A DNA stretch of 64,000 nt from assembly GCF_003334315.1 (NCBI RefSeq), contig NZ_QOWR01000003.1; one strand, given 5' to 3'. The translations under genes were made by a program, and so were the position numbers. Under the pieces are notes generated by a model. It worked only from the letters and a program-made list of their open reading frames with translations, was not told the DNA's origin and searched no databases. The stretch is from Escherichia coli (GTDB taxonomy: Bacteria; Pseudomonadota; Gammaproteobacteria; Enterobacterales; Enterobacteriaceae). This document shows, piece by piece, positions 50,692 through 50,708 of the stretch (position 1 is its first letter; every line of letters begins with the position of its first letter).

Positions 50692-50708
50692 TTGCAAGCG
50701 GTGTGCCA
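50692..50708 (-). promoter_or_regulatory. sigma54 (-24/-12) promoter of glnK-amtB
   Basis: Minus strand reads TGGCAC-accgc-TTGCA, exact -24 GG / -12 GC consensus, about 50 nt upstream of glnK ATG. Confidence 0.8.

Follow-up and report, generated by a model that had tools for sequence, protein, structure and literature searches.

The glnK-amtB promoter of Escherichia coli: a sigma-54 core element and its NtrC-type enhancer, read against published data

Introduction

In a 64-kb stretch of Escherichia coli DNA, analysed here as a whole and referred to as the window, a perfect match to the core consensus of sigma-54 promoters lies in front of glnK, which raises the question of whether it is a working promoter of the glnK-amtB operon and, if so, which activator it answers to. 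RNA polymerase carrying sigma-54 binds the GG and GC elements of such promoters as a closed complex that is unable to open the DNA alone, and under nitrogen limitation NtrB phosphorylates NtrC. We conclude that the element is almost certainly glnKp, the promoter from which E. coli transcribes the glnK-amtB operon with sigma-54 (RpoN) and with phosphorylated NtrC (NtrC~P) as the activator. This promoter is already well documented as a nitrogen-starvation promoter, and the main finding is not new.

Results

The glnK-amtB locus

Both genes of the operon lie on the minus strand. According to the open reading frame listing and the E. coli annotation, glnK (50302..50640, stop included) encodes the PII-2 protein of 112 aa, and the second operon gene, amtB (48986..50272), which follows 29 nt past glnK and belongs to the same published transcription unit (Cho et al. 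2014), encodes the ammonium channel of 428 aa; these are the genes that an earlier note on this DNA had named as the PII/ammonium channel operon. The ABC-transporter gene mdlB, also on the minus strand, has its end at 50821, 180 bp upstream of glnK. The 751 bp around the site gave one match each in 5424 of 5426 complete E. coli genomes, mostly with at least 99% identity, and the matching regions are annotated as mdlB, glnK and amtB. In K-12 MG1655, the spacer between mdlB and glnK shows 100% identity to the one here; glnKp of MG1655 (b0450-b0451) has the same spacer base for base, the same 17-mer (OS03, see below), the same transcription start and the same genes, with no difference in the promoter. 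Near glnK, published coordinates were converted with the relation that the NC_000913.3 position equals 523238 minus the window position, positions in U00096.2 being lower by 776. Farther from glnK, strict colinearity with MG1655 does not hold: between glnK and a sigma-54 site in ybaT (10034-50640) it holds a net 101 bp less than NC_000913.3, and hence at least one indel lies somewhere between the two.

On the far side of the operon, where amtB and tesB converge, the sequence can be read as a hairpin, AGCCGGA-N11-TCCGGCT, followed by ATTTTTTT and with an A-run on its other side (48936..48968, minus strand). This is probably a bidirectional terminator, as judged from its sequence, and the automatic terminator scan missed it because of its 11-nt loop. 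When 48900-51200 was compared with Rfam under a permissive cutoff, neither the spacer nor the leader matched any RNA family; the comparison returned just two sub-threshold chance matches, snoZ256 and Thr_leader (25 bits vs 55), the latter of which (48900-48976, plus strand) probably reflects the amtB/tesB hairpin.

A unique sigma-54 core motif in the mdlB-glnK spacer

Reading of the sequence together with a pattern search placed the 17-mer CTGGCACACCGCTTGCA at 50709..50693 on the minus strand, composed of TGGCACACCGCTTGCA (50708..50693) and the C that precedes it. Its core, TGGCAC-N5-TTGCA, is the single match without mismatch on both strands of the 64-kb window. In 100 dinucleotide-preserving shuffles of the window, the exact motif occurred by chance at a mean of 0.03 per window, with any match at all in 3 of the 100. 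When up to two mismatches were allowed, 25 matches were found where 28.75 were expected, so that the exact match alone is statistically informative. The earlier note had given the element as 50692-50708, which is right to within one base, being one base too long on its 3' side; the exact match to the -24/-12 consensus that it had claimed holds true for the core at 50708..50693.

The GG (50707-50706) and GC (50695-50694) elements are exactly 10 bp apart, the spacing that the sigma-54 class requires within TGGCAC-N5-TTGCW. Counted from the mapped transcription start they are at -26/-25 and -14/-13; with the start that Bonocora et al. (2015) predicted, these positions become -25/-24 and -13/-12. 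The motif lies within the 180-bp mdlB-glnK spacer and ends 52 nt 5' of the glnK ATG (50640), the mapped start being 41 nt before this codon, which bears out the earlier description of the element as sitting at the right distance from glnK. In this region the minus strand reads TTTTTCATTTCTGGCACACCGCTTGCAATACCTTCTTCGTGTAGCAG and, 41 nt on, GGAGGGGATCTATG. The extended sigma-54 consensus favours a G after TGGCAC, where glnKp has an A. A promoter scan of 50200-51100 found no sigma-70-like promoter (-35/-10). A 158-aa open reading frame with a GTG start (50778..50302), which runs across the promoter, was set aside as a mechanical 5' extension of glnK.

Published binding and expression data at glnKp

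The identical 17-mer was reported by Bonocora et al. 2015 (PMC4591121) as the intergenic sigma-54 ChIP-seq site OS03, with the motif CTGGCACACCGCTTGCA, a score of 18 and an assignment to glnK. Its motif centre, 471761, corresponds to position 50701 of the window, and the start predicted for it lies 42 nt 5' of glnK. With the matrix of that study the site has a PSSM score of 10.5, which is in the middle of the range of about 6 to 12.3 covered by the intergenic sites taken from the same table. The authors recorded that in EcoCyc the glnK promoter was in 2015 still listed as 'predicted', without experimental confirmation. Binding of sigma-54 is further supported by a gSELEX peak of the RpoN holoenzyme in the mdlB/glnK spacer, where NtrC also gave a peak (Shimada et al. 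2021, PMC8743547). Thus, the sigma-54 promoter that the earlier note had read from the letters coincides with a site at which sigma-54 has been found by experiment.

The nitrogen control through NtrC that it had proposed also agrees with published results. Brown et al. 2014 (PMC4066584) found an NtrC ChIP-seq peak for glnK-amtB with a 39.7-fold enrichment at 471741-471821, which is 50721..50641 of the window. This interval spans the core promoter and not the palindrome described below, which is 40-60 bp off and within ChIP resolution. In the same study, glnK mRNA was not readily detected after deletion of glnG, the gene for NtrC, and complementation restored it. Schumacher et al. 2013 (PMC3870243) took glnKp as a readout of NtrC activity alone; starvation for ammonium raised NtrC-specific activation at glnKp 400-fold over the level in ammonium-rich conditions.

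Two further published sigma-54 ChIP-seq sites, both intragenic, fall within the window. CTGGCACTGGTTTTGCT in ybaT (10018-10034, minus strand) is site IS02, whose PSSM score of 12.1 is higher than that of glnKp, and TGGCGCGTTTCTTGCG (37437-37452, plus strand) matches the antisense site IA05 in acrR, with coordinates that agree with the mapping to MG1655.

Transcription start and leader

Cho et al. 2014 (PMC3923258, Table S4) mapped a 5'-triphosphate-enriched transcription start at 471781 (+) with 1952 reads, which was detected in exponential and in glutamine (nitrogen-limiting) cultures. The upstream 51-mer listed for this start has TGGCACACCGCTTGCAATACCTTCTTCG as its 3' end and is also given as ending in TTGCAATACCTTCTTCG. 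Conversion of the U00096.2 coordinate places the start of the glnK-amtB transcript at the G at 50681 on the minus strand, 13 nt 3' of the C of the GC element (50694) and within the 11-13 nt expected for sigma-54. A start about 12 nt past the GC element had been set beforehand, in the earlier note, as the test on which its reading would stand or fall, and the published start is in keeping with it. The 5'-UTR of 41 nt thus runs from 50681 to 50641, its remainder after the first base being 50641..50680, and carries the Shine-Dalgarno (SD) sequence GGAGGGG of glnK at 50651..50645 (minus strand), a region that is conserved.

The same authors list glnK;amtB as a transcription unit and mdlAB as a separate one; they also assign sigma-70 binding ('DN') to the glnK region, with both sigma-70 and sigma-54 ChIP-chip signal for the unit. 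Three more 5' ends in their data lie within the glnK coding sequence, at 50350, 50356 and 50389 of the window (minus strand; 472112, 472106 and 472073 in U00096.2); they were seen in glutamine medium only, were assigned to amtB, and could be internal promoters or processing sites. The glnK start is absent from the Cappable-seq and SMRT-Cappable-seq supplements, whose tables are possibly incomplete, unless glnK was unexpressed in those conditions, and a literature search for a primer-extension study of glnK returned an unrelated Xylella paper alone.

An NtrC-type palindrome upstream of the core promoter

The NtrC-box consensus is given as TGCACCAnnnTGGTGCA. When the region 50710-50820 was examined for NtrC sites, as the earlier note had proposed, a conserved NtrC-type palindrome, TGCACTGTCATAGTGCG, was found at 50777..50761 (minus strand), centred at about -88 and with three mismatches to TGCACC-N4-TGGTGCA; we refer to it as site I. 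Matches to the NtrC consensus with up to three mismatches number 18 in the window where 26.5 are expected, which rules out such a match as independent statistical evidence. Site I is therefore assigned to NtrC, as its putative contact site, because of its position, its conservation and the NtrC ChIP-seq and gSELEX peaks in the spacer. Upstream of it, at 50780..50809, lies a conserved part of the putative enhancer with two candidate weak NtrC sites, TGCAAAAATGTAACGCA (50796..50780), 19 bp upstream of site I, and ATTTCATCGTTGGTGCA (50809..50793), 32 bp upstream and with a perfect right half-site. In the alignment, the block GGTGCAAAAAnGTAACGCA is conserved across Enterobacteriaceae, and the Citrobacter counterpart of the upstream site has three mismatches and is 33 bp from site I. 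Members of the NtrC regulon carry palindromes upstream of the core, usually at least two, and here we find site I with weaker flanking sites 19 and 32 bp upstream.

A terminator-like hairpin and an anti-Shine-Dalgarno element

Site I overlaps a terminator-like hairpin, AACGCACTGTG-CACTGT-CATAGTGCGTT followed by TTCATTTTC (50749..50786, minus strand), which was picked up by the terminator scan and by folding. The hairpin has 11 pairs (50786..50759), starts 35 nt past the mdlB stop codon and dominates the local fold; the U-run TTCATTTTC that follows it is interrupted. A T-run directly past the palindrome is conserved at all nine Enterobacteriaceae loci; Yersinia, Rahnella, Acerihabitans and Photorhabdus lack it, though mdlB is upstream there too. 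A comparison of the T-run with the upstream gene was uninformative, as mdlB is upstream in 14 of 14 Enterobacterales with or without the T-run. The supplements of Adams 2021, consulted for the mdlB 3' end, hold no mdlB or glnK entry. As RNA, the NtrC palindrome and the conserved T-run are a candidate intrinsic terminator of the mdlAB operon, so that one 40-bp element might also be the landing pad of the activator; going by the sequence, we hold this to be possible and somewhat doubtful.

The anti-SD insulator would then be a second barrier. Levy et al. (bioRxiv 10.1101/086108) reported that CT-rich anti-Shine-Dalgarno segments in glnKp silence the translation of read-through transcripts, the decisive one being seven bases long and, as numbered by the authors, 'centred at -4'. 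The proximal CT-rich heptamer CCTTCTT is present here at 50689..50683 (minus strand), which is -8..-2 from the mapped start, and it occurs only in read-through RNA. glnKp is the founding example of these insulators, which are embedded in sigma-54 promoters; the tests of Levy et al. were made on reporter constructs with a synthetic ribosome binding site, whereas the pairing with the native glnK SD considered here is a fold prediction. The minimum-energy structure predicted for read-through RNA has CCUUCUUC base-paired to the SD of glnK, and this fold is no more stable than those of shuffled sequences (z = 0.10). In the native transcript from 50681 the SD is predicted to be open, and the RNA is less structured than the shuffles (z = +1.56). 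The fold of the read-through RNA, being no better than the shuffles, is a consistency check and not evidence.

Conservation of the promoter and spacing of its enhancer

A scan with the GlnK protein, taking one genome per species, gave 79 loci, and the 400 nt upstream of each glnK homologue were searched for the core motif. With up to two mismatches, it was found on the sense strand at 52 of the 79 proteobacterial loci, compared to 3.4 in shuffles (maximum 10) and 2 on the antisense strand, which indicates, at the level of sequence, that sigma-54 control of glnK is ancient and widespread, in line with the textbook view. At the Pseudomonas and Stutzerimonas loci (L016-L044), a conserved motif of the TGGCAAGCTTTCTGCT type (GG-N10-GC) lies about 190-210 nt upstream of glnK, and the leader would hence be much longer than in enterics.

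The gene order mdlB-glnK-amtB is kept in 14 Enterobacterales. In 15 aligned upstream regions from this order, TGGCA and TTGC of the core are invariant; conservation extends to the palindrome TGCACYnnnnTGGTGCG and to the SD, and not to the sequence in between. The glnK-amtB promoters of Citrobacter, Enterobacter, Klebsiella-like strains, Yersinia and Photorhabdus thus share the synteny, the -24/-12 core and the NtrC-type palindrome with E. coli. The other Enterobacterales differ from E. coli in the distance of the enhancer and in the leader length, with predicted starts 33-78 nt before the glnK ATG, and the T-run is found in Enterobacteriaceae only. In a comparison of enhancer distances (loci L002-L018, about 2300-2500), site I lies at -87 from the predicted start in Escherichia (about -88 by the mapped one), at -97 in Citrobacter, and elsewhere at -118, at -130/-131 and at -140 to -142 (Rahnella, -142). 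Taken modulo 10.5 bp, these distances amount to 2.5-5.5 in all five spacing classes, and this pattern is suggestive of an enhancer and a promoter that may have kept their helical face while the spacer shifted by up to five turns.

Discussion

The mechanism that we propose for this locus is the one established for enhancer-binding proteins of bacteria at sigma-54 promoters, here with NtrC as the activator. RNA polymerase with sigma-54 would occupy the GG and GC elements (50707-50694) as a closed complex, and NtrC~P would assemble, presumably as an oligomer, on an enhancer consisting of the palindrome at 50777..50761 and the weaker flanking sites up to about 50809. From there, NtrC~P would reach the polymerase through a loop of the roughly 50 bp of pyrimidine-rich DNA in between, in a geometry that we infer, and its ATP hydrolysis would isomerise the closed complex and open the promoter. 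Transcription begins at the G at 50681 and yields a glnK-amtB mRNA with a 41-nt leader.

This arrangement resembles that of glnAp2, the archetypal NtrC/sigma-54 promoter, which likewise combines a GG-N10-GC core with TGCACC-N5-GGTGCA-type palindromes farther upstream and is activated by NtrC~P. In glnAp2, the centres of the NtrC sites are at -108 and -140 (PMC1865078), a spacing of 32 bp that the candidate sites of glnKp share. However, the glnKp enhancer is closer (about -88) and fits the consensus more poorly, having three mismatches and, for a partner, merely a half-site, and the promoter scan found at glnKp no overlapping sigma-70 promoter of the kind of glnAp1. For its part, glnKp is said, after Atkinson et al. 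2002, to require higher levels of NtrC~P than glnAp2.

Could the element instead be a sigma-54 binding site that yields no transcript, similar to the intragenic or 'orphan' sites, or a chance match? Many of the 135 binding sites of Bonocora et al. 2015 (PMC4591121) are intragenic with unclear output, and the two intragenic sites in ybaT and acrR lie elsewhere in this window. Nevertheless, the absence of a transcript is already contradicted by the transcription start data, since a triphosphate-enriched start with 1952 reads is located 13 nt past the GC element; the site is, moreover, intergenic and in the sense orientation, 41 nt before glnK, and its motif and position are kept in 15 Enterobacterales. 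The exact motif is expected by chance 0.03 times in the window, and we hold this explanation to be extremely improbable. It is also very unlikely, if a shade less so, that glnK-amtB owes most of its expression to a sigma-70 promoter or to mdlAB read-through, with the sigma-54 site as an accessory. The sigma-70 signal alongside that of sigma-54 in the ChIP-chip data of Cho et al. (2014), the detection of the start in exponential phase too, and the end of mdlB on the same strand just 180 bp upstream could be taken in its favour, but the region shows no -35/-10 of the sigma-70 type, and in cells lacking NtrC the glnK message is hard to detect. Read-through in particular is opposed by the terminator-like hairpin 3' of mdlB, by the listing of mdlAB and glnK-amtB as separate units, and by the anti-SD element in glnKp, which silences read-through expression (Levy et al.) and with which the native fold accords.

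A promoter that depends on sigma-54 might still have a different enhancer-binding protein in the place of NtrC. Around a dozen activators of sigma-54 exist in E. coli, and the palindrome, three mismatches from the NtrC consensus, is not statistically exceptional. Against such an activator stand the NtrC ChIP-seq and gSELEX peaks at the spacer, an expression that depends on glnG and is restored on complementation, and the fit of the conserved palindrome to the NtrC-box type TGCACYnnnnTGGTGCG, and we give it hardly any credence. Hence, control of glnKp by sigma-54 and NtrC~P is the reading that we retain.

As a standard model of a sigma-54/NtrC promoter, glnKp is used to report NtrC activity and to build synthetic enhancer circuits. 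The value of the present case is that of a positive control, in which a real, experimentally verified regulatory element was recognised from the sequence alone with single-base precision. Two points of modest interest go with it. One is the enhancer, whose distance to the promoter appears to have drifted by five helical turns among relatives with its phasing kept. The other is the palindrome as a possible terminator of mdlAB: if this were true, one 40-bp element would both block read-through into glnK-amtB and receive NtrC.
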